Positions 36,642-64,000 of a stretch of 64,000 nucleotides of DNA are shown one piece after another. The position numbers were made by a program, and so were the translations under genes. Source of the DNA: an uncultured Chloroflexia bacterium (GTDB lineage: Bacteria; Chloroflexota; Limnocylindria; QHBO01). Below the pieces are notes generated by a model that saw only the letters and a list, made by a program, of their open reading frames with translations, had not been told where the DNA came from and searched no databases. Position 1 is the first letter of the stretch. Every line of letters starts with the position of its first letter. Where the stretch lies: NCBI GenBank assembly GCA_963716585.1, contig CAVQTN010000002.1:389730-453729 (forward strand), given 5' to 3'.

Positions 36642-37613
<972 letters not shown>

Positions 37614-37657
37614 TTCCCGCGTCGGCGCGAGCGACGCCGGAAACGCTCGTCTGAGCA

Positions 37658-38362: not shown

Positions 38363-38367
38363 CGGCG

Positions 38368-39318: not shown

Positions 39319-39322
39319 CTGC

Positions 39323-41054: not shown

Positions 41055-41140
41055 GTAACCTCCTGTCTGTGACGGCCGCCTGGTGGGGGCCGATGCGGTC
41101 CAGGGTGTCCTGCAGCTCTTGGAGTCGCATGAGAGTCGGC

Positions 41141-43162: not shown

Positions 43163-43167
43163 CAGCG

Positions 43168-44367: not shown

Positions 44368-44456
44368 GAGCTCAGCATCGCCGCCGAGTCTGAGGGGATT
44401 CTGAGAATGCCTGCATGCGCCGGGTCAAACCTGAGTAAAGAAATGGCTGCTCGGCG

Positions 44457-45785: not shown

Positions 45786-45801
45786 GCGGCTGCCATGCGC
45801 G

Positions 45802-46476
45802 TCACGCCTCCGCCATGCGATAGCCGACGCCGCGCACCGTGAGGATGCGCGTCGAGGCGCCGTCGCCGAGCTTGTCGCGCAGGTAGTGGACGTAGGTGTC
45901 GACGCTGTTCTCGGTCAGGAAGTCGCCATACGGCCAGGCGTGGTCGAGCAGCTGCTGACGCGTGAGCACTTGTCCGGGGTGGCGCAGGAAGCACTCGAGC
46001 AGTGAGAACTCCCGCGGGCTGAGCTCCACCGAGCGGTCGCCGACCTTGACCGAGCGCCGGACCTCGTCGAGCGCGATCGGGCCGTTGCGCAGAACCACGC
46101 CGCGCCGAGTCCCCCCGTCGCGCGCGCGACGGTCGAGCGCCCGCAGTCGTGCCGCGAGCTCCTCGTAGCTGAAGGGCTTGACGAGGTAATCGTCTGCGCC
46201 GGAGTCCAGGCCGCGCACGCGGTCGCCAACCGCGTCGCGCGCCGTCAGCATCAGGATCGGCGTGCGGTTGCCGTCGTCGCGCAGGCGGCGCGCAACCTCC
46301 AGGCCGCTGATGTCCGGCAGGCCGATGTCAAGGATCACGCCGTCCAAGCCGGCCATGCCGGCGACGTCGAGCGCCTCGTTCCCCGTGGCCGTCAGCTCGA
46401 CAAGGTGGCGGTCGCCTTCCAGCAGACGCTTGAGCAGGCGGCCGAGCCGCGCGTCATCCTCGACGACGAGCAGGTG
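45802..46476 (-). CDS. OmpR-family response regulator (MprA/CpxR-like)
   Basis: The start is MHLLVVEDDARLGRLL. The receiver is followed by a winged helix (SPREFSLLECFLRHPGQVLTRQQLL...GVGYRM). The track ORF extends spuriously to 46944. Confidence 0.8.
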   Translation of the reverse strand, partial: HLLVVEDDARLGRLLKRLLEGDRHLVELTATGNEALDVAGMAGLDGVILDIGLPDISGLEVARRLRDDGNRTPILMLTARDAVGDRVRGLDSGADDYLVKPFSYEELAARLRALDRRARDGGTRRGVVLRNGPIALDEVRRSVKVGDRSVELSPREFSLLECFLRHPGQVLTRQQLLDHAWPYGDFLTENSVDTYVHYLRDKLGDGASTRILTVRGVGYRMAEA

Positions 46477-47262: not shown

Positions 47263-47940
47263 ATGCAGGAGACGCCGCGGGTGTGGCGCATCTCCATGGC
47301 ACCGCCCGACCTGGCCGCGCACCTGGCCGGTCAGCACGTCGACATCCGGCTCACGGCGCCAGACGGCTACCAGGCCCAGCGCAGCTACTCGATCGCGTCG
47401 GCCCCCGAACAGTCCGGCCTCGAGCTTGTCGTGGAGCGGCTGGATGACGGCGAGGTCTCTCGGTACCTGACCGATGAGCTGCGCGAGGGCGACGTGATCG
47501 AGCTTCGCGGCCCGATCGGCGGCTACTTCGTCTGGCACGCCGGCCTCGGCGGCCCGCTGCAGCTGATCGCCGCCGGTTCCGGCGTCGCGCCCTTCCTGGC
47601 CATGCTCGACCATTGGCAGGCCTCCGGCTCGGAGGCACGCGTCCAGCTGCTCTACTCGTCCCGCACCCGTGACGAGGTCATCGCCCACGACCGCCTGGTG
47701 GAGCACCGCCGCGCCGGTATCGGCATCGCGATCACGCTCACGCGTGAGCAACCACCGGGCTGGGACGGCCTGAACGGTCGCGTGGATCGCCGCATGCTGG
47801 AGCAAGCAACCATTCCCGCGGAGGATCGGCCGCAGCTCTTCATCTGCGGGCCGACCGCCTTCGTCGAGGGCGTCGCCGACATGGCGGTCGCCCTCGGCCA
47901 CGACCCGAACCTGGTCAAGACCGAACGCTTCGGAGGATGA
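47263..47940 (+). CDS. ferredoxin-NADP reductase-like FAD/NAD(P)-binding oxidoreductase
   Basis: The FAD-binding motif is RSYSIAS and the NAD-binding motif is LIAAGSGVAPFLAML. The start was chosen at MQETPRVWRIS. The track start at 47203 would overlap the previous gene. Confidence 0.65.
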   Translation: MQETPRVWRISMAPPDLAAHLAGQHVDIRLTAPDGYQAQRSYSIASAPEQSGLELVVERLDDGEVSRYLTDELREGDVIELRGPIGGYFVWHAGLGGPLQLIAAGSGVAPFLAMLDHWQASGSEARVQLLYSSRTRDEVIAHDRLVEHRRAGIGIAITLTREQPPGWDGLNGRVDRRMLEQATIPAEDRPQLFICGPTAFVEGVADMAVALGHDPNLVKTERFGG

Positions 47941-48233
47941 GCACCATGGATTCCATCGCCAGCCATCGCCTGGATGGCAACGCCGCCGCGGGCCGGCTGA
48001 CCGACGTGTTCGCGGTCGAGATCACCACCATTCGCGCCGTGTGCGCCGGCTGTGGGCGGAGCGGGCAGTTGGGCGAATACATCGTCTACGCCGATGCGCC
48101 CGGCACGGTGATCCGCTGCCCGTCATGCGAGGCCGTCGTCATCCGGCTGGCGCAGGTCGGCGACAGCACCTGGCTCGACATGCGCGGCGCCCGGGCGCTG
48201 CGCATCCCCCTCGGCGGGACGGACCGGAGCTAG
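47937..48233 (+). CDS. small zinc-ribbon protein (CxxC...CxxC) of unknown function
   Basis: 98 aa. The start overlaps the FNR-like gene stop (ATGA). The cysteine pairs are CAGCG and CPSCE. Confidence 0.5.
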   Translation: MSTMDSIASHRLDGNAAAGRLTDVFAVEITTIRAVCAGCGRSGQLGEYIVYADAPGTVIRCPSCEAVVIRLAQVGDSTWLDMRGARALRIPLGGTDRS

Positions 48234-48286
48234 CCGCCGCTCCGTAGCGTGGGCTGGCCGCGCGAGGCCGCGACCAGCCGCGTCGC

Positions 48287-48883
48287 TCAGTCCTCGTCGA
48301 TGATCGGCATGTCGACGAGGTGCGCCGAGACGAACCACATCTGCATCTCGTTGGTGCGCAGCACGTCGCCCATCAGCAGGTCGTTGCTGCCCGAGTCGCC
48401 GTTCTCGTCGGTCACGTCGATGGCCTTCCTGGTCTCGCCGATGATGATCTTGTGCCCCTCGACCAGCCGCGACAGCATGGCCGGCACCTCTTCGGCGCCG
48501 TTTGGCGGCCGCACGATGTTCGTCAGCTCGGCGACGTGGCGCGGATCGGATACGGCGATGCCGCCCAGCATCTGCACGCGCTCCGCCAGGCCGTCGAGCA
48601 GCACCAACTGCTCTGCGGCGTGCTTGTCGAAGAGCAGGTGCAGCTGGTAGAAGGTCGGCCCCGACACCAACCAGTGGTGCTTCTTGTAGAGGCTGTACAG
48701 GATGGTGCTGTCGGCCAGGATCTCGTTCAGCAGCTTGCAGCTCTGCCGCCGCGACGCATCGTCCAGGCCGAGCGGCAGCTTGCGCAGGCTGCCGAAGCGT
48801 TGCACCTCGTGACCGCCGTGCGCCAGCTTGGGATTCGCCTCGTCCGAGGCGGCCACGGGCCGCCTGGTGGTTGTTGCCATCAT
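48287..48883 (-). CDS. dps: Dps-family DNA-protection / ferritin-like protein
   Basis: 198 aa (KLLNEILADSTILYSLYKKHHWLVSGPTFYQLHLLFDKHAAEQ...ERVQMLGG). The ferroxidase-site His and Asp/Glu pattern is present. Confidence 0.85.
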   Translation of the reverse strand: MMATTTRRPVAASDEANPKLAHGGHEVQRFGSLRKLPLGLDDASRRQSCKLLNEILADSTILYSLYKKHHWLVSGPTFYQLHLLFDKHAAEQLVLLDGLAERVQMLGGIAVSDPRHVAELTNIVRPPNGAEEVPAMLSRLVEGHKIIIGETRKAIDVTDENGDSGSNDLLMGDVLRTNEMQMWFVSAHLVDMPIIDED

Positions 48884-49338
48884 TGGTTCCTCTCGCTACT
48901 CGGTCGGGAGCGACGCTCCCCAGTCAAGCTTGTGACGGAGCACGATGCGGGCCAAGCCGCGACGGCCAAGGAGAGCCAGGCCGATCAGTTTCCGTCGCGC
49001 GGGCCGACGTCGGCGAGGCCGCCCTTACGACCACGATCGTCGGGAGTCGGTTGGCGCGGCAGACGGTCCCGGGTCGTGTTGTCGTGCGCGTCCCGCTCGG
49101 CCTGGTCGCTGATCCATCGCCGATCGCGTCGCAGTCGACGCCATAGCCATTTCATCACGCTCACCTCCGGGGCCCGCCCCGCGCAGTGCATACCACGCTG
49201 ATCGCCGCGGCGAGCGCCGCCACGCCCGTCATACCGAACACCACGATACTCGAACCCAGTCCGTCTCGCGGTGCGTTCCCCAGGACCAGAGTGGAGGCCC
49301 CGCTGCCACAGCAGCACAGGGGCAGCCGGGCCCGTGGG

Positions 49339-50421
49339 TCAGGGTCCTGGCACGTCGGTTGGAAGATTCTCAGTCGGGATCTTGGCAGCGGATCGTCGAG
49401 CCAGGAGCTCGCGCCCCTCGATGAGCCCGCCGGGTCGCAGGGCCAGGATCACAATCAAGGCGATCGCGAGGCAGACCTCCGTGAGCCCAACCACCTGGAA
49501 TGGCAGGAACTGGGCGATGTTGATCGTGTTCTCAACCCTTCGCAGGCCCTCGAACGCGAGGGTCACGATCCCGGTGCCGATGACGGCGCCCGACACGGTC
49601 GCCGGGCCTCCGACGATGAGCATCGTCAGGACGACGAACGTCTCCGTCAGGTAGAAGGCGCTCGATGAGAAGGACGTGATGAAGTGCGCCCAGAGAGCAC
49701 CGCCGAAGGCGACGATGAATGCCGACATCACGAATGCGGCCCAGCGCGTCCGCACGATGTCGATGCCTATGGTCGCGGCCGCGTAGGGGCTATCTCGCGA
49801 GGCGCGGAGCTTGAGCCCGAGCGTCGAATCCCTGAACAGGTATACGACCACGAGCACCATGAGCCCGGCGCTTGCGGCGGTCACCAGGTCCGTGTAGGGA
49901 AGCAGCCCGAACAAGGTCCTGGGCCCGTTGGTCACGTCGCTCCAATGGGCGAGGATGACGTGCACGATAACCAGCAGCGCGAAGGTCGCGATGACCGCCG
50001 CCGCGTCCGACAGCCGCATCAGCGGATAGCCAACCACCGCCGCAAACAGCGCTGCGACGCCCCCCGCGATGAGGCATGCCGGCAGGAATGGCAGCTGGAT
50101 GTGCACCAGCGGGGCGTACAGGGTCGGCAGAGCGAGTGCCTTGGCATCGGGGCTCATTGTCAGAATCGCGGAGGCATAGGCCCCGATGCCCATGAACCCG
50201 ATGTGACCGAACGACAGGACTCCGGAATTCCCGACGAACAGCTGGAGGCCCAGGACGAGAACCAGGCTGATGAAAGCGTCCGTCGCGATCCGCAGGACCA
50301 GGGGATCGCCAAGCAGCGACGCGGCACCGGCGACTGCGATCAGGATGGCCATGAGGACGACGAGGGGACGGTATCGGCCCACCAGGCTGCCAAGATCACG
50401 CACGGAAGCGAGGCGCATCAT
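49339..50421 (-). CDS. branched-chain-amino-acid-type (Liv/Urt family) ABC transporter permease
   Basis: 360 aa, polytopic (LSFGHIGFMGIGAYASAIL). Confidence 0.8.
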   Translation of the reverse strand: MMRLASVRDLGSLVGRYRPLVVLMAILIAVAGAASLLGDPLVLRIATDAFISLVLVLGLQLFVGNSGVLSFGHIGFMGIGAYASAILTMSPDAKALALPTLYAPLVHIQLPFLPACLIAGGVAALFAAVVGYPLMRLSDAAAVIATFALLVIVHVILAHWSDVTNGPRTLFGLLPYTDLVTAASAGLMVLVVVYLFRDSTLGLKLRASRDSPYAAATIGIDIVRTRWAAFVMSAFIVAFGGALWAHFITSFSSSAFYLTETFVVLTMLIVGGPATVSGAVIGTGIVTLAFEGLRRVENTINIAQFLPFQVVGLTEVCLAIALIVILALRPGGLIEGRELLARRSAAKIPTENLPTDVPGP

Positions 50422-51317
50422 GCGATCCGTTTCGCGGCTGCTCGGCCTCGCACAATGCCTTCCGGGCGTACGAGCAGAACGAGGATCACGATGGCAAACG
50501 TGAATGCTTCGCGAAAATCGAGCAGGCCCTGGGGCAGCACCGTCTCCATGCCCACCGTCAACAGACCGAGCAGGTAGCCACCGACCAATGCGCCGGTCAT
50601 GCCTTCCATCCCGCCGATAACGATCGCGATCAGGGCAATCAGGAGCGGCCCGCCGCCAATCGTCGGGTTCACTGAACCGATCCGGGCAATCCAGAACAAC
50701 CCGACCACCCCAGCCAGCACGCCGCTGATCGCGAACGCCGTCGCGATGACGCGGTCCGCGCGGATGCCGAGCAGGCGCGTCATCACGAAATCGTCGGATG
50801 CTGCGCGCAAGGCGATCCCGAGTGTCGACCGCCGTAGCACGAGGTTCAGCACCAGGAGGACACCGATGCTCACGAACAAGGTCAGGACATTGGCAACGCC
50901 AATCGAGACACCGGCGACCGTAATGTTCCCGGATAGGAGCTCGGGAATCGGAACTGCGCGGGGTCGTGGGGAGACGATCAGCAGCGCGGCATTCTGGAGG
51001 AGCGTGCTGACCGCAAACGAGGTGATGATCATGGCGCTGAGCGAGTTGGAACGGACGGGCCGGAAGGCGATCCGTTCCGTCAGCAGGCTGGCTCCCGCCG
51101 CGACCGCGATCGCAATCAACGCCACCGCCAGCCAGGGAAGCGGCCCATCACCCAAGACGAGCAGGGTGTAGCCGGCAACCATCAGCAGCTCACCGTAGGC
51201 CAGGTTCACGAGCCGAAGGACGCCGTAGACGATGACCATGCCGAGCGCCATCAACGCGTAGAGGCTTCCCAGGCTCAAGACGTTCAGCGTGAACTGGACC
51301 AGCCCGGCGAGGTCCAT
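50418..51317 (-). CDS. Liv/Urt-family ABC transporter permease
   Basis: 299 aa, polytopic (LAYGELLMVAGYTLLVL). Its start overlaps the upstream ATPase gene and its stop overlaps the next permease gene. Confidence 0.8.
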   Translation of the reverse strand: MDLAGLVQFTLNVLSLGSLYALMALGMVIVYGVLRLVNLAYGELLMVAGYTLLVLGDGPLPWLAVALIAIAVAAGASLLTERIAFRPVRSNSLSAMIITSFAVSTLLQNAALLIVSPRPRAVPIPELLSGNITVAGVSIGVANVLTLFVSIGVLLVLNLVLRRSTLGIALRAASDDFVMTRLLGIRADRVIATAFAISGVLAGVVGLFWIARIGSVNPTIGGGPLLIALIAIVIGGMEGMTGALVGGYLLGLLTVGMETVLPQGLLDFREAFTFAIVILVLLVRPEGIVRGRAAAKRIA

Positions 51318-52045
51318 CAGCCGCCTCCCGGTATGGGGCCGGAGCCCAGATAGACACGCGCGATGTCCACCTGGGATCGCACCTCGGCCGGCGCGCCGCT
51401 CGCCTCGATCGAGCCGGTTCGCAGCAGGTAGACGCGATCTGCGATCTCCAGCGTGCGCGTCACGTTCTGCTCGACGAGCAGGATCGTGACCCCCTCATCA
51501 CGAAGCTCCTTGACGAGGCGGAAGATCCTGTCGACCAGCGCCGGGGCGAGCCCGAGCGAGGGCTCATCCAGCATCAGGAGGCGCGGCCGCGAAAGCAGGG
51601 CGCGACCGATCGCGAGCTGTTGCTGTTCGCCGCCGGACAAGGTGCCGGCGCGCTGGGCTCGACGCTCGCCCAGGATTGGAAAGCGCTCGAACAGCGCTTC
51701 GGTGTCCACCCGGACAGCGGCCGCGTCTCGACGGAGGTACGAGCCCAGGCGCAGGTTCTCAGCAACCGTGAGGCTTGCGAAGATGCCGCGGCTTTCGGGG
51801 ACCATCGCCACGCCGCGCCGGGCGATCTCCTCCGGGGTGCGTCCGATGATGGACGATCCGAGAAACGAGATCTGGCCGCGGCTCGGCGCAACGACGCCTG
51901 CGATGGCACCCAGTGTGGTCGACTTGCCGGCGCCGTTCGCGCCGATGAGGGCGACGAGCTCCCCCTCGCCAACCTCGAGCGAAACGTCGCGGACCGCTGT
52001 GATCGAGCCGTAGCGCGCTCCGAGCCCCTCGACCTTCAGCACCTC
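51317..52045 (-). CDS. Liv/Urt-family ABC transporter ATP-binding protein (LivF-like)
   Basis: Walker A GANGAGKST, signature LSGGEQQQLAIGRAL, Walker B LLMLDEPSLGL. The start was set at the GTG overlapping the livG-like stop. The track ORF is over-extended to 52153. Confidence 0.8.
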   Translation of the reverse strand, partial: EVLKVEGLGARYGSITAVRDVSLEVGEGELVALIGANGAGKSTTLGAIAGVVAPSRGQISFLGSSIIGRTPEEIARRGVAMVPESRGIFASLTVAENLRLGSYLRRDAAAVRVDTEALFERFPILGERRAQRAGTLSGGEQQQLAIGRALLSRPRLLMLDEPSLGLAPALVDRIFRLVKELRDEGVTILLVEQNVTRTLEIADRVYLLRTGSIEASGAPAEVRSQVDIARVYLGSGPIPGGG

Positions 52046-52769
52046 AGGCCGCCGACCCTGCCGAAGTCCCGAGATACGCCTCGATGACGGCCGCGTCGCC
52101 CTGGATCTGATCCGCCGTGCCCTCGGCGATCGTCTGCCCGTGGGCAAGGACATGGATGCGATGGCACAGCCGCATGATCAGCCGCATGTCGTGATCGATG
52201 ACCAGGAGGCCGCGATCCGCGGTGCGCGGGATCTCGACCAGCCGATCCAGGAGCGCGTCTGTTTCGTCCTCGTTCAGGCCGGCTGCCGGTTCGTCGAGCA
52301 GGAGATAGCGGCAGCCCGTGGCAAGGGCGCGAGCGATCTCGACCATCCGCTCGAGTCCGTACGGAAGGGCACCGGCGAGCGAGTCGCGCAAGCTTGCCAG
52401 GCCCAGCCATTCGAGGAGATCAGCCGCTGTCCGCGAGGCCTCCCCTCTCGAGCGCCCAGCGCTCAGCGCGCCGACCTCGACGTTCTCCATGACCGTCAGG
52501 CTGCGGAACAGCTTGACCGACTGGAAGGTACGGGCGACTCCAGCTCGGGCGATGACATGCGCGGGCCGGCCGGCCACATCGACGTCATCCACCAGGATCC
52601 GACCCGCAGTCGGAGACAGCAGGCCGGTGACGACGTTGACGAGCGTGGTCTTGCCTGATCCGTTCGGCCCGATCAGGCCAAGGATCTCCCCCGGCCCGAA
52701 TCGGAGGCCCACGCCATTCAGGGCGCGGAGGCCGGCGAAGTCCTTCGTCAAGCCCTCGACGACAAGCAT
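52044..52769 (-). CDS. Liv/Urt-family ABC transporter ATP-binding protein (LivG-like)
   Basis: Walker A GPNGSGKTT, Walker B YLLLDEPAAGL, plus the LivG-type C-terminal extension. Confidence 0.8.
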   Translation of the reverse strand: MLVVEGLTKDFAGLRALNGVGLRFGPGEILGLIGPNGSGKTTLVNVVTGLLSPTAGRILVDDVDVAGRPAHVIARAGVARTFQSVKLFRSLTVMENVEVGALSAGRSRGEASRTAADLLEWLGLASLRDSLAGALPYGLERMVEIARALATGCRYLLLDEPAAGLNEDETDALLDRLVEIPRTADRGLLVIDHDMRLIMRLCHRIHVLAHGQTIAEGTADQIQGDAAVIEAYLGTSAGSAA

Positions 52770-52807
52770 TCAGGCGCGGCCGCAGCCCCGCCGGGCTGTC
52801 GCATGGG

Positions 52808-54028
52808 TCAGGGCTCGGGCACCCAGGTTGGGCGGAACCACCCATCGAATTTCGTCTTGCCGGCGGCGATCTCGGCGATCACCGCCTCCTTGTCGGGCCG
52901 GTGGCCGCCCGCCGCGTCCGACCAGGTGAGATGGCCCGTCAAGAGCGTGAACTCGGTTCCCTCCATGGCCTTGGCCATGGCCGCGCCATCGGTGCTGTTG
53001 GCCTTCGTCATCGCCTGAGCCATGACATTCACCACGTCCCATCCGGTGACGACGAACGCGGTGTCGGGATCCTTCTGGTATTCGGCCTTGTACAGGTCGA
53101 GAAACGCCGCGACGTTTGCGCCCGCATCGGCACTCATGAAGCTGTGGGTGACATAGAAGACGTCATTCCCACGATCGGGTCCCAGGACGACAGACAGCTG
53201 GGGATCGTCGTACGAGTCACCGCCCATGATCGGGGTGGTGATCCCGGCCGCGCGGATGGTCTTGATGATCGTCCCGAGGTCCGGCATGTACGACGAGATG
53301 TAGAGCACGTCCGGCTGCTTGGGCAGAGCCTTGATCCGTTGCAGCTGCGCCGAAAAATCCTGAGCGCCCTGGGTGTAGGTGTCCTCTGCGAACACCTCAC
53401 CACCGAGGTGCTTGAACGTGGCGATGAAGTAGCGGCTCAGGGACTTCGTGTAGTCGATGAACGTGTCGGTCACAACGTATGCCGTGCGCCAGCCCTTCTT
53501 CGCGTACGCGAATTCGGCCCCGGATGCGCCCATGGTCGTGTTCCACATCGAAAGGGTGAACTGCTTGTCGCCGAGCGACTTGGATCCGTAGAGGGGTGAG
53601 GACGCACAGGTGGAGATGCCGACGATGCCGGCTTTCTGTGCCTCGCGGCTGGCCGGGCCGCCGAAGTCGAAGTCACACGGCGCGATGATCGCCTTGGCGC
53701 CCTGCTGGATCAGCTCGAGCGCGACGTTCCCGACCACGACCGGGTCGCTCTTCCCGTCCAGGTTGATGAGCTCGACCTGCTTGCCGAGGATGCCGCCCTT
53801 CTTGTTCAGCTCCTTCACCGCAAGCTGGGCGCCACGCAGGCCCGGCTCGTCAAGCGGCGCCTGGATCCCGGTCAGGCTCAGCGTGGAGCCGATGAGGATC
53901 TTGTCGCCGGTCACGCCGCTGGCCGACGGACCAGGTGTCTGGGTACCGACTTGCGCGCCGCATGCCGCTACGATGAGCGCCACCGCGGTCAGGGCGGACA
54001 TCTGCTTGAGAAGCAAGCGATTCCCCAT
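52808..54028 (-). CDS. Liv/Urt-family periplasmic substrate-binding lipoprotein (amide/urea/amino-acid binding)
   Basis: The start is MGNRLLLKQMSALTAVALIVAAC (lipobox). A type-I periplasmic binding fold is present (ILIGSTLSLTGIQAPLDEPGLRGAQLAVKELNKKGGILGKQVEL). Confidence 0.8.
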   Translation of the reverse strand: MGNRLLLKQMSALTAVALIVAACGAQVGTQTPGPSASGVTGDKILIGSTLSLTGIQAPLDEPGLRGAQLAVKELNKKGGILGKQVELINLDGKSDPVVVGNVALELIQQGAKAIIAPCDFDFGGPASREAQKAGIVGISTCASSPLYGSKSLGDKQFTLSMWNTTMGASGAEFAYAKKGWRTAYVVTDTFIDYTKSLSRYFIATFKHLGGEVFAEDTYTQGAQDFSAQLQRIKALPKQPDVLYISSYMPDLGTIIKTIRAAGITTPIMGGDSYDDPQLSVVLGPDRGNDVFYVTHSFMSADAGANVAAFLDLYKAEYQKDPDTAFVVTGWDVVNVMAQAMTKANSTDGAAMAKAMEGTEFTLLTGHLTWSDAAGGHRPDKEAVIAEIAAGKTKFDGWFRPTWVPEP

Positions 54029-54090
54029 CAGACCAGTTCCTCCACCTGGCCCCCCGTTCTCGGCCGGCGGATGATAGCAGAATCGACCTG

Positions 54091-55137
54091 ATGCAAGAGG
54101 CACGAAGCGTGACCGATATCGTCCCGGTGACCCGGTTCGTCCCGACACCCCGGCAGTACGCCTGGACCTTCGGCGGCTGCGATCCGGTGATGCGGATCCG
54201 GCCCGGCGAAGTCATGGATCTCTTTACGGAAGACTGCTTCGCGGGGCACATCAGAACAGCAGCGGACCTGCCTGCCACCTCGATCGAATACCCCTTCATC
54301 AACCCGCAGACTGGCCCGTTCTTCGTCGAGGGTGCGGAACGCGGGGACACGCTGGCCATCCATCTCGTCGACGTTCAGCCGGCACGTGACTGGGCGGTGA
54401 GCACCACGGTGGCTCTGTTTGGAGCGCTGACCGGCACGAAGTTCACCGCCACCCTCCAGCCCGCTCTCCCGGAGCGGACCTGGATCTATCGCGTCGACGC
54501 GGCCACTCGGGAGGTCATCTTCGAGGCGCTCGACTCGGACTTCCCGGTGCGCCTCCCCCTCGAGCCCTTCCACGGGACCATCGGCGTTGCCCCGGCGGCG
54601 TACGAGGTCCGCAACGTCCTCGTCCCGGAGGCGTTCGGCGGCAACATGGACACGCGTGAAGCGCGGGCCGGGACGACCATCTATCTCGGCGTCAACGTCC
54701 CGGGCGCGCTCTTCTCGCTGGGCGACGGTCACTACACGATGGGCGACGGCGAGGCGTGCGGCGTCGCGGTCGAAGGAGCGATGAACACGCGCCTCACCGT
54801 TGACGTGATCAAGGGCGTCTACTGTGAGTGGCCGCGCCTCGAAGACGACGACTGGGTCATGGTGGCGGGCTCGTATCGCCCGCTGGAGGATGCGTTCAGG
54901 ATCGCCCAGACACAACTGGTCCGCTGGGTGGCCTCCGAGACCGGCCTCTCGGAGATGGACGCCTACCAGCTCGTTTCCCAGGCCGGGCGCTCGTCGATCG
55001 CGAACGTCTGCGACGCCAACTACACCATCGTCGCCAAGATGCCGAAGCGAGTCCTTCCGCACGACATCCCGTGGATGGGCGCGGCACATGACCGGCTGGC
55101 GGCCATCGGTCGGCGGGTCTCGATCGCTACGCCCTGA
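54091..55137 (+). CDS. acetamidase/formamidase-family amidohydrolase (FmdA/AmdA)
   Basis: 348 aa (FFVEGAERGDTLAIHLVDV...GGNMDTRE...GDGHYTMGDGEACGVAVEGAM). Confidence 0.85.
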   Translation: MQEARSVTDIVPVTRFVPTPRQYAWTFGGCDPVMRIRPGEVMDLFTEDCFAGHIRTAADLPATSIEYPFINPQTGPFFVEGAERGDTLAIHLVDVQPARDWAVSTTVALFGALTGTKFTATLQPALPERTWIYRVDAATREVIFEALDSDFPVRLPLEPFHGTIGVAPAAYEVRNVLVPEAFGGNMDTREARAGTTIYLGVNVPGALFSLGDGHYTMGDGEACGVAVEGAMNTRLTVDVIKGVYCEWPRLEDDDWVMVAGSYRPLEDAFRIAQTQLVRWVASETGLSEMDAYQLVSQAGRSSIANVCDANYTIVAKMPKRVLPHDIPWMGAAHDRLAAIGRRVSIATP

Positions 55138-55164
55138 GCAGGCAGGTTGTGGCCGCGCCGACGT

Positions 55165-55644
55165 CTACTGAACGTTGAAGTCGACGACCATCCCCTGGCT
55201 CACATGCCCGGGCAGGTTGCAGATGATGGCGTAGTGCCCAGCTGGCAGGTCGACGGTTAAGGTTCCCGAGGCCCCAGGCGCGAGCTCAGCAACCTCGCCC
55301 ATCGAGGTGAAGTCGTCCTCGTTCACCGCGCCGTCGACCAGCGGCAGGTCCGCTGCCTGGGTGTCCGTCTGGAGCACGACGAACTCGTGCGGCATGGTGC
55401 CGCCGTTCGTGACGTTGAAGGTCACCGAGCCGGCTGCCGCGGTCACCGCGCTCAGGGCGATCTTGTACTCGGTCAGCGTGGCGGTGATGGTCACCCCGGC
55501 CCCCGACGCGGGCGACGAAGCACTAGCTGAAGCCGATGCTGATCCGGAGGCAGTCGCCGACGGGGTCGTACCGCCGGCACTGCACGCGACCATCAGCGCC
55601 GCAAGGGCCGCCAGGGCGGCGGTCCGGAGTCCCATGGGGGTCAT
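55165..55644 (-). CDS. cupredoxin-domain lipoprotein (type-1 copper)
   Basis: The start is MTPMGLRTAALAALAALMVAC, followed by a Ser/Ala-rich linker. Copper ligands are present in MPHEF and CNLPGHVSQGM. Confidence 0.7.
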   Translation of the reverse strand: MTPMGLRTAALAALAALMVACSAGGTTPSATASGSASASASASSPASGAGVTITATLTEYKIALSAVTAAAGSVTFNVTNGGTMPHEFVVLQTDTQAADLPLVDGAVNEDDFTSMGEVAELAPGASGTLTVDLPAGHYAIICNLPGHVSQGMVVDFNVQ

Positions 55645-56021
55645 GCTGGTGCACCCACTTGGACGCTGTAGAACAACGCCCCAAGCGGAGCCGCTACGCC
55701 CAGCGCGAGCGACACAGGCCAAACGCGTGGGACCAAGAGCATCAAGATCAGGGGTCGGTCGCGAATCGTGAGCTGCGAGCGTGGGGCCACGGTGGTATCG
55801 CCTTTCGTGTCGTGCTCAGGTGCCGCAATCACGGACTTCGGGCTTCGCCCAGCCTCCGAGTGTCTCACGGACGGACGCCCCTGCAGGATGCGCGCCAGGA
55901 GGCGGGCATCCATTTGACCACTCGCGGCGGCTCCACGCCCTGCCGGTCGAGGCCAGCGGGGGCCCGCGTGCCCAGTCGACCGACGCCAATTGTTCTGCGA
56001 GGGCGGTTCCGTGCTCAAATG

Positions 56022-56093
56022 ATTGGCTGGGGCGGAAGGATTCGAACCTTCGATCTCCTGATCCAGAGTCAGGCGCCTTACCGCTTGGCCACA
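56022..56093 (-). tRNA. tRNA-Gln (anticodon CUG)
   Basis: The minus-strand sequence TGGGGTG-TG-GCCAAGCGGTAAGGC-G-CCTGA-CTCTGGA-TCAGG-AGATC-GAAGG-TTCGAAT-CCTTC-CGCCCCA-G folds as a cloverleaf. It has a 7-bp acceptor stem with one G-U pair, anticodon loop CUCUGGA, and a T-loop GGTTCGAATCC. CCA is not encoded. Confidence 0.8.
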
Positions 56094-56174
56094 CCCCAGC
56101 GCGCGTGCCGAAGGATTCTACCAAAGAGGCCGTTCCTGCCTCCTCCTGGTCTTCTCGCCGGCCGCAACCGGCCC

Positions 56175-57361
56175 CTAGGCGACGACGCGCTCGGCACGTA
56201 CCGGAATCGCGGCAGCGGCCACGAACGGGAAGGCGACCACGCTGGCGAAGGCAACGCCGTAGCCGAAGGCTCCCCCGCCGGCCAGGCCGATGATGATGGC
56301 CAGCGGCGTGGCGACGACGGTGGCGACCAGGTTCTGGAACGTGTTCTGGACGCCCAGCGCCCGTCCCGCCCATCGCGGCCCAGCTCGCTCGGCTACCGCG
56401 GTGAAAGCCAGCCCGTTGGGCGAGACCGTGATCATGGCCGCCACAGCCAGCGCAACGACCGATGCGCCGGAGCCTGCCATGGCGAGCACGCTAAGCATGG
56501 CCATCGCCAGGCCGATGGCCAGCGCCACGAGGCGCATCGGTCCAAGACGGGAGCGGACGCGATCCGACCAGTAGCCGGCCGCCAGCCGCGTGGCGGCGCC
56601 GACCAGCTGGGTGATCGCCAGCAGGATGCCGGCGCCGCCGAGCGACCAGCCGCGGCCGGTGACCAGGTAGTCGAAGGCGAAGATCGCGACGGCGAACTGC
56701 GGAATGACGAGGCACGCGCTGGCGGCATGGATGCGCCACAGGTAGGCCGTCCGATACGGCGAACCGTCTTGCGGCGCACCGGCCACCCGGGCGGGCCGCT
56801 GCGGATCGCGCACGACCAACCCGATGAGTACCGCGGTGACCAGGCAGGCCGCCCCCAGCCCGCCAAGGGCGGCGCCCAGGCCAATGGTGGCCAGCGACGG
56901 CAGGACGAGCGCGGCGGCGGCCACACCGAGCGGCTGGCCGGTCTGCCGGATGCCCATCGCCAGGCCGCGCTCCTGAACGTCGAACCAGCCCAGGATCAGC
57001 CGTCCGCTGGCGGCGTGGATGGCGGCACCGCTGGCACCCGCCAGGAAGAGGCAGATCCAGCGTTGCAGCGGATCGGGCAGCTGTGCCGCGGTCAGCAGCG
57101 CCAGCCCGGCGCCGGCGAGGCCGAGAGTCAGGACCAGGCGCTCGCCCCATCGGTCAGCCGCCGCGCCCCAGGCGATGAGCGCCACCAGCACGCCAAAGAC
57201 CGGCGCGATGACCAGGGTGGTGGCCGCCTCGAGCGGGAGCCCCTCGGAGCGCAGTGCCGGGATCAGGTAGGCAAGGCCGTACTGCGAGGCACAGCCGGCG
57301 ATCAGGCCGGTGAGGCCCACCGCCAGCACGACCCAGCGCTGCGCCCCGTTCTCGGTGGTCA
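56175..57361 (-). CDS. MFS-family transporter
   Basis: Twelve predicted TM helices. The start was set at the GTG at 57361 (VTTENGAQRWVVLAVGL). The first 100 or so codons of the track ORF are Arg/Gly junk. Confidence 0.7.
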
Positions 57362-57373
57362 CTGCCCCTCTAC

Positions 57374-58465
57374 TCAGGCGCTGTGGACCGCCAGCACGTT
57401 GTGCGCGGGAACCGGCCGGCTCATGCCCTTCAACGTCAACTCGCCGACCTCCTCGACCTCGACCAGTCCCTCGACCATGGCATAGGCGCGCTGCGTGAGC
57501 AGGATCTGGTCGGGCGCCGCCTGGCTGCTCAGCCGCGAGGCCATGATCACCACGTTGCCGATGGCGCCGTAGTCGTAGCGTCCTTCGAAGCCGATGCGCC
57601 CCAGCGTCGCGTAGCCGACCGCGATGCCCACCCCCAGGCCCATCTCGTAGCCACGCTTGCGCCACTCGCTGGCCACCGGCTGGAACCGCTCGCGCACGGT
57701 GAGCGCCATGCGCACGGCGCGCTCGACGTGATCCGGCTGCAGGACCGGATCGTTGAAGAACGTCATCACCCCGTCGCCGGCGAAGTGCTCGAGCGTGCCC
57801 TCGTGCTCCAGGATCGCGGTGCCGATGAGTCGGTGGTACTCGCCCAGCACCCCGAACAGCTCCTCCGGCTCCGCCTGCTCGGCGAACGTGGTGAAGCCGC
57901 GCAGGTCGCAGAAGACCGCCGTGATCTGGCGCCGATGCCCGCCGAGCAGCTGCTCGCCCTCCGCCGACGAGATGAGGGCCGAGATCTGCGGCGACAGGAA
58001 TCGACTGAGCTCCTGCTTCTGACGTTCGATCGTGTCATTGAGCGCGGTCTGGCGTGCGAGATACTCCTGCTCCAGGTCGTGCATCCGTTTCGCCGCCAGC
58101 GAGGCGTTGATCCGGGCTCGCAGGATGCTCGGCTCGATGGGTTTGGCGAGATAGTCGGTCGCGCCCAGCTCGATGCATCGCACCACGCTCTCGAGCTCTT
58201 CGACGCCGGAGACGATGATGACCGGGATGTGGCGGATGGCCGCGTCCTCTTTCATCGCCGCGAGGGTCTGGTAGCCGTCGAGCTCGGGCATCAGTACGTC
58301 GAGCAGGACGACGTCGATGGCGGCCGGCTGCGCTCGCAGCAGCTCCAGCGCGGCCATCCCGTTCTCAGCCTGCAGCACCTTCAGCCCCAGTGCCTCGAGC
58401 TGGCGGACCAGGACGAGCCGGTTGACGAGGCTGTCGTCGACGACGAGCGCGATGCCGTTGCTCAT
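57374..58465 (-). CDS. response-regulator receiver fused to a class III adenylate/guanylate cyclase
   Basis: The REC domain reads ALVVDDSLVNRLVLVRQLEALGLKVLQAENGMAALELL...DVVLLDVLMPELDG...ATDYLAKP. The cyclase domain reads ITAVFCDLRGFTTFAE...LEHFAGDGVMTFF...GLGVGIAVGYA. The start [11 protein letters not shown] overlaps the Hpt stop. Confidence 0.8.
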   Translation of the reverse strand: MSNGIALVVDDSLVNRLVLVRQLEALGLKVLQAENGMAALELLRAQPAAIDVVLLDVLMPELDGYQTLAAMKEDAAIRHIPVIIVSGVEELESVVRCIELGATDYLAKPIEPSILRARINASLAAKRMHDLEQEYLARQTALNDTIERQKQELSRFLSPQISALISSAEGEQLLGGHRRQITAVFCDLRGFTTFAEQAEPEELFGVLGEYHRLIGTAILEHEGTLEHFAGDGVMTFFNDPVLQPDHVERAVRMALTVRERFQPVASEWRKRGYEMGLGVGIAVGYATLGRIGFEGRYDYGAIGNVVIMASRLSSQAAPDQILLTQRAYAMVEGLVEVEEVGELTLKGMSRPVPAHNVLAVHSA

Positions 58466-58830
58466 GTAGCCCGATCCCGCCACGCGCGCAGCGCCTGGAG
58501 CGTTGCCTCCCACTCCACGGCGAGCCCGGCGAGGTCGTCGGCGGCGCCGTCCAAAGCATCCTCCCGTCCCGCGGCCTCGAGGCGTCGCGCACGAGCCGCC
58601 AGGCGCTGCGCCCCGACCGTGGCGCTGCTCGACTTCAGCGTGTGCGCCGGCCGTACCACCGACGCGGCATCGTGCGCGTCCGCCGCGGCCTGGATCTCGG
58701 CGATCTGGCGCGGCGCATCGCCGAGATAGGTGTCGATCAGATCGACGACGAAAGCGCTGTCGCCGCCGACCGAGGCCGCCAGCTCGGCCAATGCAACGTC
58801 ATCGAGGAGGGGGAGCTCAGGCTCGGGCAC
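58462..58830 (-). CDS. Hpt (histidine phosphotransfer) domain protein
   Basis: 122 aa. The phospho-His context is [26 protein letters not shown], which is typical of Hpt. Confidence 0.75.
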
Positions 58831-61800
58831 GTGATTTCCTCTTGCGCGGGGACCCGGGTTGCGCGGCCGGCACTCTCATTGGCGTCCGCTCCAGGGCGGC
58901 CGCCAGCTCCGGGGGGCGGATGGGCTTGCTCAGGTAATCGTTCATCCCAGCGGCCAGGCACGCCTCGCGGTCGCCGGCCATGGCGTTGGCGGTCATGGCC
59001 ACGATCCACAGCGGCCGACTCCGGCCAGCGGGAGCGGATCGCGCGCGTGGCACCGAGTCCGTCGAGCTCGGGCATCTGGACGTCCATGAGCACCACGTCG
59101 AACGGCGTCGCGCTCGAGTGCCGCGATCGCCTGCAGCCCATCGGCTGCCACCTGCGCGGTGTAACCGAGCTGCGCCAGCAATCGCAGGGCGAGCTTCTGG
59201 TTCACGGCGTTGTCCTCGGCCAACAGGATGCGCAATGGATTGCGCTCGCCAAGCAGGCCGTCATCGTTCGTCGCGACCTTGCCCGGCGCGGGACGCCGCG
59301 TCACGACCGGCGCCGAGCAGGATCGTGGCAATGGTGTCGTGCAGCGCCGACGGCTTGACCGGCTTCGCCAGCCAGTCCGTCACCGGACCGCCATCCCGGT
59401 CCCGCATGCCGACCGACGACAGGATCACCAGCGGTGTCTGCTGACGATGCGCCGTCTCATCGACGGCGCGGACGCGTTCCGCGAGCTCGACTCCGTCCAG
59501 CTCTGGCATCAGCAGGTCGAAGAGGGCGATGTCGAAGCGCTCGCCGTGCTCGAGCCATTCGAGCGCCTCGAGCGGCGAGCCCGTCTCGCGCGGCACCATC
59601 CCCCAGCGCGCGGTCTGCGCCACGAGGATGCGGCGATTCGTGGCGTTGTCATCGACGATCAGCGCCGTTCGTCCGCTCGAGGTCAGCCTCGATCCGCGCC
59701 GGTCGACTGGGTGCCACCGCATCTGGCGCGGCGAGCGGCATGCGGACCGAAAGATGGAAGACGCTCCCCTCTCCGGGGACGCCCTGGCTCTCGACAGTCA
59801 GCGAGCCATCCATCAGCTCCGCGAGCCGGCGGCTGATGGCGAGGCCGAGGCCGGTGCCGCCGTATCGGCGCGCAATCGACGCATCGGCCTGGCTGAAGGA
59901 CTGGAAGAGCCGATCCATGGCAGCCGCCGGGATACCAATGCCCGTGTCGCGAATGTCGATGCGGACCTCGCAGCGACCCAGGCTGCCGCGCTTCGGACGC
60001 TTCGATCTGGGTTCCGCCGACCGTCACGACGACCTCGCCCTGCTCGGTGAACTTGACGGCGTTCGAGAGCAGGTTGAGGAGCATCTGGCGCAACCGGCCC
60101 GCGTCGCCGACCAGGGCGGCGGGAAGCTCCTCGTCGACGGCGTAGACCAGCTCGAGGCCCTTCTTGGCAGCAGCCGGCGCGATGATGTCGAGCGAGACCT
60201 CGATGGCGTCGCGCAGGTTGAACGGGGCGTTCTCGAGATCGACGCGCCCCGCCTCGATCTTCGAGAAGTCGAGCACGTCGTTGATGATCGTCAGCAGCGC
60301 GTCACCCGACGTGCGGATCGTCTCGGCGAAGTCGCGCTGCTCCTCGTCGAGCGGTGTGTCCATCAGCAGCCCCGACATGCCGATGATGGCATTCAGCGGC
60401 GTCCGGATCTCGTGGCTCATGGCCGCCAGGAAGCTGCTCTTGGCCTCGTTGGCCTGCTCGGCGGCGTCTACGCGACTCCTGGGCCTCGCCGAAGAGGCGC
60501 GCATTCTCGAGCGCGATGGCCGCCTGCTGCGAGAGCCCGACCAGGAAGCTCAGGTCGGCGTTGCTGAACGGCGTCGGCGAGTCGGTCCGCCACATCGCCA
60601 GCATGCCGGCGACGGCTCCGCGGACCACGAGTGGCGCCGCCATGAGGCGTTCGGCGCCGTGCTGCTGCGTGCCCTCGATGGTCATCGCCCGAGGATCCGC
60701 ATTGGGGTCGTTGATGGCCTCTGCCGTACCGGTAACGGCAATATCACCCAGGATGCCGGCGCCACGGGTGATCAGGGAGGCGCGCAGCTGCTCGGCGATG
60801 TCTCCCTGTGCCGACGACCGCCCGGAACCTCTCGCCGTCCTGTTCCGGCAGATAGATCGCGGCGGCATCGGCGCGCAGCAGCCGAATGGCGCGCGAGGCG
60901 ATGACGTCGAGCACCGTCGACAGGTCGAGCGTCGCGGAGATCTCGCGCCCGACGTCGGCGAGCCCCGCCATCTCGTCGGCGCGGCGCCGGGTCTCGTCGT
61001 ACAACCGTGCGTTCTGGACCGCGACGCCGACGTTCGCGGCAATCGTCGCGAGCAGCCGCGCATCGGCGTCGCCGAAGCGGCTGTCGCTGGTGGTGCTCTG
61101 CACGCTGATGGCGCCGATGGCCCGGTCGCCTACCAGGATCGGCACGCCCAGGTACGACCGCGCGCGCGTTCCGACGCCTCGCTCCCCAGCGTCTCCCAGT
61201 CCGATTCGCTGTTGAGCAGCAGCGGCGCGCGGCCCGCGATCACGCGGGACGTCAGTCCGGTGCCCAGCGGCAGCGGATCCTGGCGCTCGTGGGTTCCACG
61301 CTCGACGTAGAACGGAAAGTCGATGACTCCGTGACTCCTCGTCGAGGAGCGCCACGTAGGTGATGTCGGCGTCGAAGGCATCGCGCGTCTTCTCGCCGAC
61401 GAGCGCCAGCAGCGGCTCGACCTCCATGCGCGCGGTCAGCGCCTCGCCCACGGTGTTGATCGTTCCAAGCTCGCCGACACGCTGGCGTGTCTCGTCGATG
61501 AGCCGACCCGTTCGCAGTGCCACGCTGAGGCTGGCCGCAATCGTGGTCAGCAGGGAGACATCGGCCTCGTTGAAGGCATATTCGCGGTCGAGGTTCTGGA
61601 GCGAGATGACGCCTAGGATCTCGTCGCCCAGGACGAGCGGGGCGAAGATCGCCGAGCGGGCCGGCTCACCGCTGAGCTGTGAAGGCTGGCCCAGCTCTGC
61701 CCCGACCTCGCGAAGGTCGTGGGTGATGAGCAACGGTTCCCGCGTCTCGATCACCCGCTTGCGGAAGCCCATCACCGGCCGCGACTCGACCGGATAGCGC

Positions 61801-64000
61801 TTGCCACGCTCCAGCGTGAACGGGAATTCCATCGTCTGGGTCGTCGCGTCGTAGACGGCGATGTCGACCACCTGCGTGTCGAAGACGTCGCTCGCGCGCT
61901 CGCCGACCAGCTCGTACATCGCCTGCACATCGACCTCGGCGGCGAGCCGGCGCTGCACGCTGTTGACGATCGCCAGCTCGGCGGCGCGCCGGTCGGTCTC
62001 CGCCAGCAGCCGCTTCGTCTCGTCGAAGAGACGAGCGTTCTCGAGCGCGACGCTGAGGCTCGACGTGAGCGTCGTCAGCAGTCGCACATCCGAGTCCGAG
62101 AAGGCGTCCTCGCGATCGATGTTCTGCAGCGAGATGACGCCTCGAGCCTCGTCCCCGACGATCGAGTGGAACCCACAGGCCCGACTGCGGCGCTTCACCT
62201 TGAACCACGCAGTGCCCAGGCGTGCTCCTGAAAGACACTCTGGATGTCGCGACCGATGAGCAGCGGCTGGCGCGTCTCCATCACGTGGGCTCGCAACCCG
62301 CCGATGGGCTGCGGCTCGTCAGGCAGACGCTCACCGCGCTCGATGGTATACGGATAGCGGATGAGCCCGGCTTGACGGTCGACGATGCCGATGTCGACGA
62401 CCTGCGCGTCGAAGATCTCCTGGATCTTGTCGCCGACGAGGTCGTACATCGCCTGCATGTCGAGCTGCGACGCAAGCCCCTGCTGGACGCTGTTGACGAC
62501 CGCCAACTCGGCCGCCCGCTCGATCGGTCTCGGTCAGAAGGCGCTTCGTCTCGTCGAAGAGCCGCGCGTTCTCGAGCGCCACGCTCAGGCTGGCGGCCAG
62601 CGTCGACAGGAGGCGCACGTCCGCTTCGGAGAATGCGTTCGTCCGATCCAGGTTCTGGAGCGAGATGCGGCCCCGAACCTCGCCGGCGGCGAACAACGGC
62701 GCCGCCACCAGGCTGAGTGCCGGCTCGCCCTGGATCGGTTGCAGGTCCTGTCCGGTTTCCACGTTCCAGGCGGGGACGTCGGCGATGTAGATCGGCTCCG
62801 CGCGCTCGATCAATTGCGCCGAATAGCCATGGACCGGCACCGGTTCATCGGGATAGCGTACGCCGCGCTCGATGGCGTACGGGAAGTGAATCAGGTTCGA
62901 CGCGGTGTCGATGATGCCGATGTCGACGACCTGCGCGTCGAAGATCTCCTGGATCTTGTCGCCGACGAGCTCGTACATCGACTGCATGTCGAGGTTCTGC
63001 GGCCAGCCCCTGCTGGACGCTGTTGACGACCGCCAGCTCGGCGGCGCGCTCGTCGGTCTCGGCCAGCAGGCGCTTCGTCTCGTCGAAGAGGCGGGCGTTC
63101 TCGAGCGCCACGCTGAGGCTGGAGCCAGCGTGGTGAGGAGGCGCACATCGGAATCCGAGAAGGCGTGCTCGCGGTCGAGGTTCTGGAGCGAGATCCGCCC
63201 GCGGATCTTCCCGTCGCCGAAGAGCGGCGCCATCACGAGGCTCCTGGACGGTTCACCCTGGGTGATGACCGTGCCGCCGGCGTGTTCGCTTGTCCCAAGC
63301 GTCGTAGTCGGGGATCAGCACCACCGAGCCGGTGCGGATCAGCTCGGAGGAGAGCCCGGAGCCCTCCAGCGTGGTCGGCTCGGTCGCGGAAAGCGCACCC
63401 CGCGCTCGATGGCGTAGGGGTAGCGCACCAGCCCGGCGTCGAAATCGAAGATGCCGATGTCGACGACCTGCGCGTCAAAAATCTCGCGGATCTTGTCGCC
63501 CACCAGTTCGTACATCGCCTGCATGTCGAGGTTCTGGGCCAGCCCCTGCTGGACGCTGTTGACCACCACCAGCTCGGCCGCGCGCTCGTCAGCCTCGCCC
63601 AGCAGCCGCTTCGTCTCGTCGAACAGCCGAGCGTTCTCGAGCGCCACGCCCATGCTCGATGCGACCGTGCTGAGGAGCCGCTCGTCGCTTTCGGAATAGG
63701 CATTCGGCTTCAGGTTTTCGAGGCCGATGATGCCGATCACCCGCTCGCCGGCGAGGATCGGCACGCCGAGCCATGACTCCGACGCCGGTCCCGCCACCAC
63801 GATCGCGTCGCTGGCTGCCGTATCGTCCAGCCTGCCGAGGCGCAGCGGCGCGCGCGATGCGATGACCTTGGAGGTGAGGCCCTGCCCCAGCTGAATCGGC
63901 TCGCTGTGCAGCCGATCCCCCTCGGCGATCTCATACGGGAACCGGATGACGTTGGTCGCCTCGTCGTAGAGGGCGACAAACAGCGAGGTCGCGTCGAAGA
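58817..64000 (-). CDS. hybrid sensor histidine kinase with at least 7 tandem GAF domains, HisKA, HATPase_c, and two receiver domains; N-terminus beyond the window end; reading frame interrupted at several points
   Basis: The pieces in the track are as follows. GAF modules of about 175 aa recur with a period of about 525 nt between 60300 and 64000 ([43 protein letters not shown]...[22 protein letters not shown]). HisKA and HATPase_c lie at 59649-60504 ([19 protein letters not shown] ... [17 protein letters not shown], then after a frame change [23 protein letters not shown]). REC1 is at 59261-59722 and REC2 is split over three frames (58817-59331). Confidence 0.6.

Follow-up and report, generated by a model that had tools for sequence, protein, structure and literature searches.

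Multi-GAF hybrid histidine kinases of Candidatus Limnocylindria (Chloroflexota) share a run of GAF domains joined by linkers with a recurring 11-residue motif, followed by HisKA, HATPase_c and two receiver domains. The homologs are annotated as 'GAF domain-containing protein' or 'GAF domain-containing protein/CheY-like chemotaxis protein' (e.g., P0001-P0003), and at orthologous Limnocylindria loci the kinase gene has the same neighbourhood, an Hpt gene and then a receiver-cyclase gene. Orthologs in other Limnocylindria MAGs, short-read assemblies included, are single open reading frames of 1366–2572 aa, and those at loci L002-L010 are intact. The best 120 homologs measure 1272–2501 aa. A second point of comparison is the residual error of long-read sequencing. 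Residual indel errors of long-read-only assemblies reportedly split genes into fragments, and the classic residual errors of Nanopore data concern homopolymer length and are mostly deletions. Bacterial indel mutations consist mainly of deletions and homopolymer slippage.

The window, that is, the whole 64,000-nt stretch of DNA analysed here, ends in a gene of this kinase family (Table 1). At the protein level it does not differ substantively from the Limnocylindria kinases described above; what sets it apart is truncation at the window end and 16 single-base indels, because of which the gene occupies three alternating reading frames. We consider these 16 frame breaks to be, most probably, single-base consensus errors from assembly or polishing in an ordinary gene whose true form would be one open reading frame, and we place the probability of this explanation at roughly 0.86.

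Table 1. Features of the kinase locus, in window coordinates, with frame breaks given as position and sign.
Feature	Coordinates	Strand	Evidence and remarks
Multi-GAF hybrid sensor histidine kinase gene	58818..64000	-	three-frame translation, alignment to contig_9433 (L001), Pfam, codon-usage frame tracker
GAF module U7 + linker, partial (window end)	63615..64000	-	anchor motif at 63615; unbroken
GAF module U6 + linker	63079..63614	-	breaks ~63387 (-1), ~63288 (+1), 63123 (-1)
GAF module U5 + linker	62550..63078	-	break 63000 (+1, inserted G)
GAF module U4 + linker	62019..62549	-	breaks 62522 (+1 C), 62209 (+1 C), 62163 (+1 G)
GAF module U3 + divergent linker (10-residue motif)	61491..62018	-	without break
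GAF module U2 + linker	60993..61490	-	breaks 61331 (+1 C), 61183 (-1, G5 to G4 homopolymer)
GAF module U1, final GAF ahead of kinase core	60485..60992	-	break 60813 (+1 C)
HisKA phospho-acceptor domain, 11-residue H-box	60247..60444	-	Pfam; tblastn coordinates; break 60469 (+1 A) directly upstream
HATPase_c catalytic domain	59739..60108	-	Pfam, tblastn; split by break 59999 (+1 C)
First receiver domain	59312..59679	-	tblastn; breaks 59679 (+1 C), 59311 (+1 G) at its edges
Second receiver domain	58890..59229	-	tblastn; split by breaks 59107 (+1 C), 59015 (+1 G)
Hpt phosphotransfer protein gene, 122 aa	58462..58830	-	intact; Pfam Hpt E=4e-16
Receiver + adenylate/guanylate cyclase gene, 363 aa	57374..58465	-	intact; Pfam Response_reg + Guanylate_cyc

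The kinase gene has its stop codon at 58818-58820 and its 5' end beyond the window edge at 64000, such that the window holds the C-terminal ~1,720 residues. In the repaired partial protein (1723 aa), Pfam recognised seven GAF domains, HisKA, HATPase_c and two Response_reg domains. The repeated GAF folds form a tandem array in which GAF_2 (E=6e-93) and GAF (E=1.5e-81) each matched seven stretches. HisKA was matched over its entire profile (1-66/66, E=1.6e-23) and contains the conserved His box, while HATPase_c (E=1.1e-25) shows N, G1 and G2-like boxes (24 residues) in translation. The two Response_reg stretches fused at the C-terminus had E=1.5e-39. The codon-usage frame tracker was consistent with the frames obtained from translation and alignment, and assigned a single frame to 63388-63993 in the U7 region. 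The repaired kinase is 77–79% identical to its best full-length homologs. Judged by these predicted domains, it is an ordinary large multi-GAF hybrid histidine kinase of Candidatus Limnocylindria. The region would represent the last five kilobases, at the 3' end, of a single long gene for a kinase of cytoplasmic type, in which at least seven GAF modules within the window, with conserved helical linkers between them, would precede HisKA, HATPase_c and the two receivers; further modules lie upstream of 64000.

At the kinase stop, the Hpt and kinase genes share 13 nt. Both the Hpt protein and the receiver-cyclase protein are identical on an independent ENA contig, contig_9433 of ERZ25039577. Domain architecture suggests that the kinase, Hpt and receiver-cyclase would form a His-Asp-His-Asp phosphorelay governing cyclic-nucleotide synthesis, with the receiver-cyclase as its likely output. 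Scans of the region for tRNAs and Rfam families gave no match.

The GAF array is periodic at the DNA level. A minus-strand block encoding a 10-residue motif recurs at seven sites (+ strand positions 60485, 60993, 61491, 62019, 62550, 63079 and 63615), as reported in the first-pass annotation (there about every 520–538 nt), at spacings of 508, 498, 528, 531, 529 and 536 nt. A degenerate 30-nt pattern of this block had five matches, compared to none in 100 shuffles. Tandem Repeats Finder reported no repeat in 57-64 kb because the period of ~530 nt exceeds its 500-nt limit. The last four units had been described as nearly identical in nucleotide sequence, which does not hold: in global alignments of unit pairs, whole units were 57–76% identical (shuffled baseline 54%), with 75–76% among U4-U6 and 58–65% between GAF cores. 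Only the linkers of ~200 nt are highly similar (80–91% identical within the window, 80–98% in 60-nt windows), and they are 85–90% identical to the linkers of other species. Hence, the recent tandem amplification proposed earlier is unsupported, because it would leave units with ~95% or more nucleotide identity that resemble one another more closely than their orthologous counterparts elsewhere, whereas the units here fall far below that identity and the linkers are equally similar to those of other species. The tandem periodicity is, on these alignments, an old modular architecture of the protein family.

The frame breaks span 59015 to 63387 and comprise 13 one-base insertions and three one-base deletions. 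The compensating breaks within the repeats noticed at first pass were recovered as three -1/+1 pairs (63387/63288, 63123/63000 and 61331/61183; 99–156 nt apart). This includes the example singled out in ORF 62331-63236, where the frame is lost by a 1-nt deletion at 63123 and regained by a 1-nt insertion at 63000, 123 nt apart. However, compensation does not extend to the remaining 10 breaks, all +1 insertions, six of which lie outside the repeats in the HisKA, HATPase and receiver portion.

Contig_9433 is 98.9% identical over window positions 55157-63178 and encodes the kinase as an intact 1429-aa open reading frame. Over these positions, the window differs from it by 14 one-base indels, all in the kinase gene, with 12 extra bases and two missing bases in the window; no kinase indel exceeds 1 nt. 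Repair of these 14 indels restores 1429 codons with 0 stops. The repaired gene shows 50 synonymous and 12 non-synonymous differences from contig_9433 (50, 11 and 2 at codon positions 3, 1 and 2), which together with the stop-free repair implies that it evolved under purifying selection. Alignments with ortholog proteins agree, in that the frame switches coincide with indels inside matched stretches. The breaks are absent from an independent assembly of the same population and from all orthologs examined, in support of the indel errors suggested by the first-pass annotation.

Similar breaks occur in other genes. Outside the kinase gene, the codon-usage frame tracker detected another five breaks of the +1 type in the window, each of them in a housekeeping gene: the EPSP synthase gene aroA (Pfam positions 285 and 306 on either side), a DAHP synthase (71 and 76), a second DAHP synthase with two breaks, and an FAD oxidase broken at GGC[G]ATC. 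The kinase family is also broken in two more long-read ENA contigs, with ~9–10 and 7 breaks, mostly insertions, while its short-read loci are unbroken. Fragments of the kinase are annotated as separate proteins only on the source contig (1,158,598 bp). A protein search with the kinase core for near-identical short-read fragments returned none above 83% identity, and it found truncated homologs on other long-read contigs. A search of JGI metagenome contigs for kinase copies from the same species yielded distant relatives only (≤61% identity); its patterns were generic kinase motifs, and it therefore provides no independent same-species evidence. Related MAGs originate from the Microflora Danica long-read project, whose pipeline produced Nanopore-only Flye assemblies with one Medaka round (PMC12313526), and we infer that the source contig is an assembly of this type.

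The kind of base inserted is informative as well. Among the 12 insertions mapped against contig_9433, only one duplicates a neighbouring base (6 expected, P=0.003), whereas 10 create a CpG (2.7 expected, P=5e-5). Nine are a synonymous alternative base beside a third codon position (P=0.004), a signal that weakens to P=0.03 after conditioning on the CpG bias. At 8 of 9 informative sites, one or more orthologs carry the inserted base as their allele. This insertion spectrum is unlike natural +1 mutation. The breaks share with residual long-read errors that single-base indels, in local clusters and also in housekeeping genes, disrupt reading frames that are intact in short-read and second assemblies. 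They differ from the classic form of such errors in that 13 of the 16 breaks are insertions, in that 11 of the 12 mapped insertions lie outside homopolymers and most create CpG, and in their concentration: the kinase gene has 16 breaks in 5.2 kb and the remaining 58.8 kb of the window has five, a ~38-fold difference in density. We found no common sequence or methylation motif at the insertion sites. Post hoc, GAGTC was seen close to 3 of the 12 sites.

If the breaks are consensus errors, the 13 insertions and three deletions would have arisen during assembly or polishing of a 1.16-Mb MAG contig. Their clustering might be explained by reads of co-occurring strain or paralog variants that pile up at this gene, leaving both third-position alleles in the consensus. 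The idea that both alleles were retained at polymorphic sites is only partly supported. SNP density against contig_9433 is elevated in the kinase gene, but the breaks are not enriched beside SNPs (5 of 14 within 10 nt, ~4 expected), nor do they track the SNP density of the locus. Four breaks sit in the low-SNP portion of the gene (61.0-62.5 kb), and the block at 53.5-55 kb has a similar SNP density yet no breaks. Likewise, the receiver-cyclase gene is error-free, although its cross-species conservation is at least equal to that of the kinase.

An alternative explanation might be that the breaks are real, and that the kinase is a recently inactivated, decaying pseudogene in this strain. As in pseudogenes that decay by frameshift, several frame disruptions are concentrated in one gene with intact neighbours (Hpt, receiver-cyclase and an MFS transporter), and the raised SNP density could point in the same direction. 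Moreover, the other 11 kb of the comparison with contig_9433 contained only two indels, and the window was correct at both. Because the window is thus the better assembly beyond the kinase gene wherever the two differ, a real event specific to this gene retains a small share of the probability. In contrast to decaying pseudogenes, however, the gene shows purifying selection, is stop-free over 1429 codons after repair, and lacks large deletions; the non-synonymous changes, stops and deletions that relaxed selection would leave alongside the frameshifts were not seen. A mutation process that produces indels only would be needed to explain sixteen frameshifts unaccompanied by non-synonymous decay on the same scale. 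An insertion-dominated spectrum without slippage, and the same type of break in aroA, in DAHP synthase and in kinase homologs on other long-read contigs, argue further against decay. We therefore regard the degenerating gene, which the first-pass annotation had offered as its alternative, as unlikely.

A variant of this explanation, to which we give about half that weight, is that the extra bases are present in the DNA, and that an unusual mutational process, which makes +1 insertions that create CpG, recurrently strikes the multi-GAF kinase genes of Limnocylindria. If true, such a process would repeatedly inactivate or diversify multi-GAF kinases within populations, and would account for the shattered homologs in other long-read contigs.

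Slightly less probable again is that the tandem repeat was wrongly assembled or collapsed. The GAF modules would then differ in number or order from those shown, and the breaks would mark mis-joined unit junctions. The internal repeats would lend themselves to collapse, with linkers that reach 91% identity over 198 nt and perfect matches as long as 57 nt, and copy number does vary between species (4–11 linker motifs among the best 120 homologs). Yet, units of such low overall identity are easily placed by long reads, all mapped differences are indels of 1 nt and none is a junction, and six breaks fall in the kinase and receiver portion outside the repeats. The window and contig_9433 are collinear across all shared modules without a unit-sized gap, and no unit is gained or lost. 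Hence, the earlier suspicion of mis-collapsed repeats and an uncertain copy number was not borne out, and the suggestion of variable copy number applies between species but not to these two same-species assemblies, which agree over the shared modules.

Biological use of the frame changes, by programmed ribosomal frameshifting, transcript editing or a hypermutation resembling phase variation that switches the sensor, has next to no probability: several long-read contigs carry a broken homolog of the gene and the CpG-creating insertion contexts are non-random, but it would demand sixteen shifts in both directions, 15 of the 16 sites lack homopolymer or simple-repeat tracts of the phase-variation type, no slippery motif is held in common, and in orthologs and the near-identical strain a single frame suffices for the same protein.

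With consensus errors as the preferred explanation, the biological weight of the locus is small, as the kinase is another member of a very common family with thousands of homologs. Its significance lies in a long-read MAG that carries clustered single-base insertion errors, which fragment long genes into false proteins; at least two fragments of the kinase are already separate entries in public protein collections. The error signature is unusual in that it lies outside homopolymers, creates CpG and often sits beside third codon positions. Tallies of pseudogenes, sensor kinases or GAF copies from such genomes would be misleading.

Three-frame translation of the minus strand at 57–64 kb reveals a single long protein that repeatedly changes frame, in which GAF-like modules, joined by a linker that includes a 40-residue stretch, are followed by a histidine-kinase core and two receiver domains. 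Pfam searches of the frame-repaired partial protein (1723 aa) recovered seven GAF stretches (GAF_2, E = 6e-93), HisKA, HATPase_c and two Response_reg domains. The G+C content is ~68%, and the related loci belong to Candidatus Limnocylindria (Chloroflexota) MAGs.

An independent contig of the same species, contig_9433 (ENA ERZ25039577:contig_9433; L001 and L015 are its parts), was found via an exact-protein look-up of the receiver-cyclase. Its part L001 carries the kinase as an intact ORF of 1429 aa. Window 55157–63178 is 98.9% identical to L001 and differs from it by 14 one-base indels, all within the kinase gene (59015–63123); the window has one base too many at 12 of them and lacks a base at the other two. 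Further breaks at ~63387 (−1) and ~63288 (+1), where the quality of L001 is itself poor, bring the total to 16. Four orthologous proteins aligned to the window switch frame at the same positions as the indels, and a codon-usage Viterbi frame tracker recovered the breaks independently. According to the first-pass annotation, compensating breaks within the repeats caused the frame to be lost and regained over about 120 nt. Its example is indeed a −1/+1 pair (63123/63000), one of three such pairs spaced 99–156 nt apart. The ten other breaks, however, are uncompensated insertions, six of which lie outside the repeats, in the stretch coding for HisKA, HATPase and the receivers.

Although the sequence file does contain the breaks, they are almost certainly consensus errors of long-read metagenome assembly (probability of roughly 0.86), in line with the earlier suspicion of indel errors. 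Besides the intact kinase of L001, this is supported by orthologs at seven other MAG loci, short-read assemblies among them, which are single ORFs of 1366–2572 aa. The best 120 of 5988 homologs (E < 1e-30) measure 1272–2501 aa, and separate-protein entries for the broken pieces were found only on the 1,158,598-bp source contig. Broken homologues on other long-read contigs, broken housekeeping genes and the insertion spectrum, all described below, bear on the question as well. The main rival explanation, a genuine pseudogene, is improbable: undoing the 14 mapped indels yields 1429 codons with no stop, and codon differences between the repaired window and L001 number 50 synonymous and only 12 non-synonymous (50, 11 and 2 differences at positions 3, 1 and 2), which is purifying selection, not decay.

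Microflora Danica, the long-read project behind the MAGs related to the window, produced Nanopore-only Flye assemblies with one Medaka round (PMC12313526), and the window probably has the same origin. The homologous kinase gene is unbroken at the short-read loci, as it is in one MAG from long reads. Two other long-read contigs of ENA ERZ25039464 carry broken homologues, with mostly insertions: contig_453 (L100 2440–11934; ~9–10 breaks in 9.5 kb) and contig_29095 (L099 7507–13734; 7 breaks in 6.2 kb). The flanks are much cleaner in the former and hold several breaks in the latter.

Within the window, five more +1-type breaks affect housekeeping genes of the same assembly. Four of these lie inside the 13.4–21.7 kb aromatic amino-acid cluster, and hence errors are clumped there too. 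The two paralogous DAHP synthase genes of this cluster (12772–14427 and 20788–22101), each with a ferredoxin-like N-terminal domain, are <8 kb apart on either side of aroA and adjoin an anthranilate synthase component II gene.

Broken housekeeping genes, the kinase gene and its neighbours (window coordinates)
Feature	Position	Strand	Observation
FAD-linked oxidase	~456		+1-type break, GGC[G]ATC; split between FAD_binding_4 and FAD-oxidase_C
Second DAHP synthase (paralog), N-terminus	~13420 and ~13600		two +1-type breaks
EPSP synthase (aroA)	~19750		+1-type break; Pfam halves 79-285 and 306-417
DAHP synthase-chorismate mutase	~21680		+1-type break; Pfam halves 9-71 and 76-265
tRNA-Gln (CTG)	56024-56098	-	sole RNA gene detected within the window
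Receiver-adenylate/guanylate cyclase gene	57374-58465	-	intact, downstream of kinase; Pfam Response_reg+Guanylate_cyc
Hpt protein gene	58462-58830	-	intact, downstream of kinase; Pfam Hpt
Multi-GAF hybrid histidine kinase gene	58818-64000	-	continues past window end at 64000

Break density was ~38-fold higher in the kinase gene (16 in 5.2 kb) than in the other 58.8 kb (five; binomial P of order 1e-14). Against contig_9433, breaks were not enriched beside SNPs, and SNP density along the locus did not track them. Cross-species conservation is just as high in the neighbouring receiver-cyclase gene, which nonetheless has no breaks. A reasonable guess is that the clustering stems from a collapsed strain bubble, or from mixed pile-ups of variant copies at polishing.

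The comparator, contig_9433, is error-prone too. An inverted fold-back copy of window 37161–46397 (93% identity, 145 gaps) makes up its first 9.2 kb (L015 1–9226); this copy repeats sequence from further downstream on the contig and looks like an unpolished chimeric (fold-back) long read at the contig end. The kinase N-terminus of contig_9433 aligns to the window at 86% identity, with 34 gaps over 567 nt, and switches frame repeatedly where the window stays in frame. Outside the kinase, the sensible frame at indel differences is always that of the window (OmpR-type regulator, C-terminus of a second kinase, LivM, UbiA, PMT_2). Both assemblies thus contain error clusters of their own, including one apiece in the kinase gene. 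Divergence between window 47587–63178 and L001 is patchy (~1.7–2.5% at 59.0–60.9, 62.5–63.2 and 53.5–55 kb; ~0.25% at 55.5–58.9 kb), a pattern suggestive of recombination blocks between strains; C/G transversions account for 22 of the kinase block's 68 SNPs.

The insertion spectrum is unlike the product of replication slippage. Only one of the 12 insertions duplicates a neighbouring base, versus 6.0 expected at random (P = 0.003), while ten create a CpG, versus 2.7 expected (P = 5e-5), and nine are a synonymous alternative base beside a third codon position (P = 0.004). Of these signals the CpG bias comes first, with P = 7e-6 given the third-position pattern against only P = 0.03 under the reverse conditioning. 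At eight of nine informative sites the inserted base is an allele present in some ortholog. Each CpG-creating insertion (59015–63123) is either a C that precedes a G or a G that follows a C, and 11 of the 12 insertions fall outside homopolymers. Post hoc, GAGTC occurs ≤10 nt from three insertion sites, and two share the context T|GAGCGG.

The periodic tandem array of GAF modules does exist, but it is old and unremarkable. Seven linker-encoding blocks recur at plus-strand positions 60485, 60993, 61491, 62019, 62550, 63079 and 63615, at spacings of 498–536 nt (first noticed as 520–538 nt), and a 30-nt degenerate linker block gave five matches versus none in 100 shuffles. The last four units had also been described as nearly identical, implying recent amplification; the near-identity did not hold. 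Whole units share 57–76% global nucleotide identity (75–76% among U4–U6, the fourth to sixth modules from the kinase core), versus 54% for shuffled sequence, and GAF cores 58–65%; the linker alone reaches 80–98% in 60-nt windows, with a longest exact run of 57 nt. The 198-nt linkers are 80–91% identical inside the window and 85–90% identical to ortholog linkers of other species, so their similarity reflects family-wide conservation and codon bias rather than a recent amplification within this genome. Mis-collapsed repeats, the other early suspicion, are not supported, and neither is an expanded array: window and contig_9433 are collinear across all shared modules, with zero unit-sized gaps. 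Copy number thus does not differ between these two over the shared modules, but it does vary between species, from 4 to 11 linker motifs per protein in the best 120 of 5988 homologs.

The tRNA-Gln gene occupies a 0.7-kb non-coding gap upstream of an MFS transporter gene. Judging from domain architecture, the kinase and the two genes downstream may form a phosphorelay, in which a signal would be sensed by the GAF array and the kinase would autophosphorylate at the HisKA histidine and pass the phosphoryl group to its own receiver(s). From there it would move through Hpt to the receiver of the cyclase, whose phosphorylation would modulate cyclic-nucleotide output.
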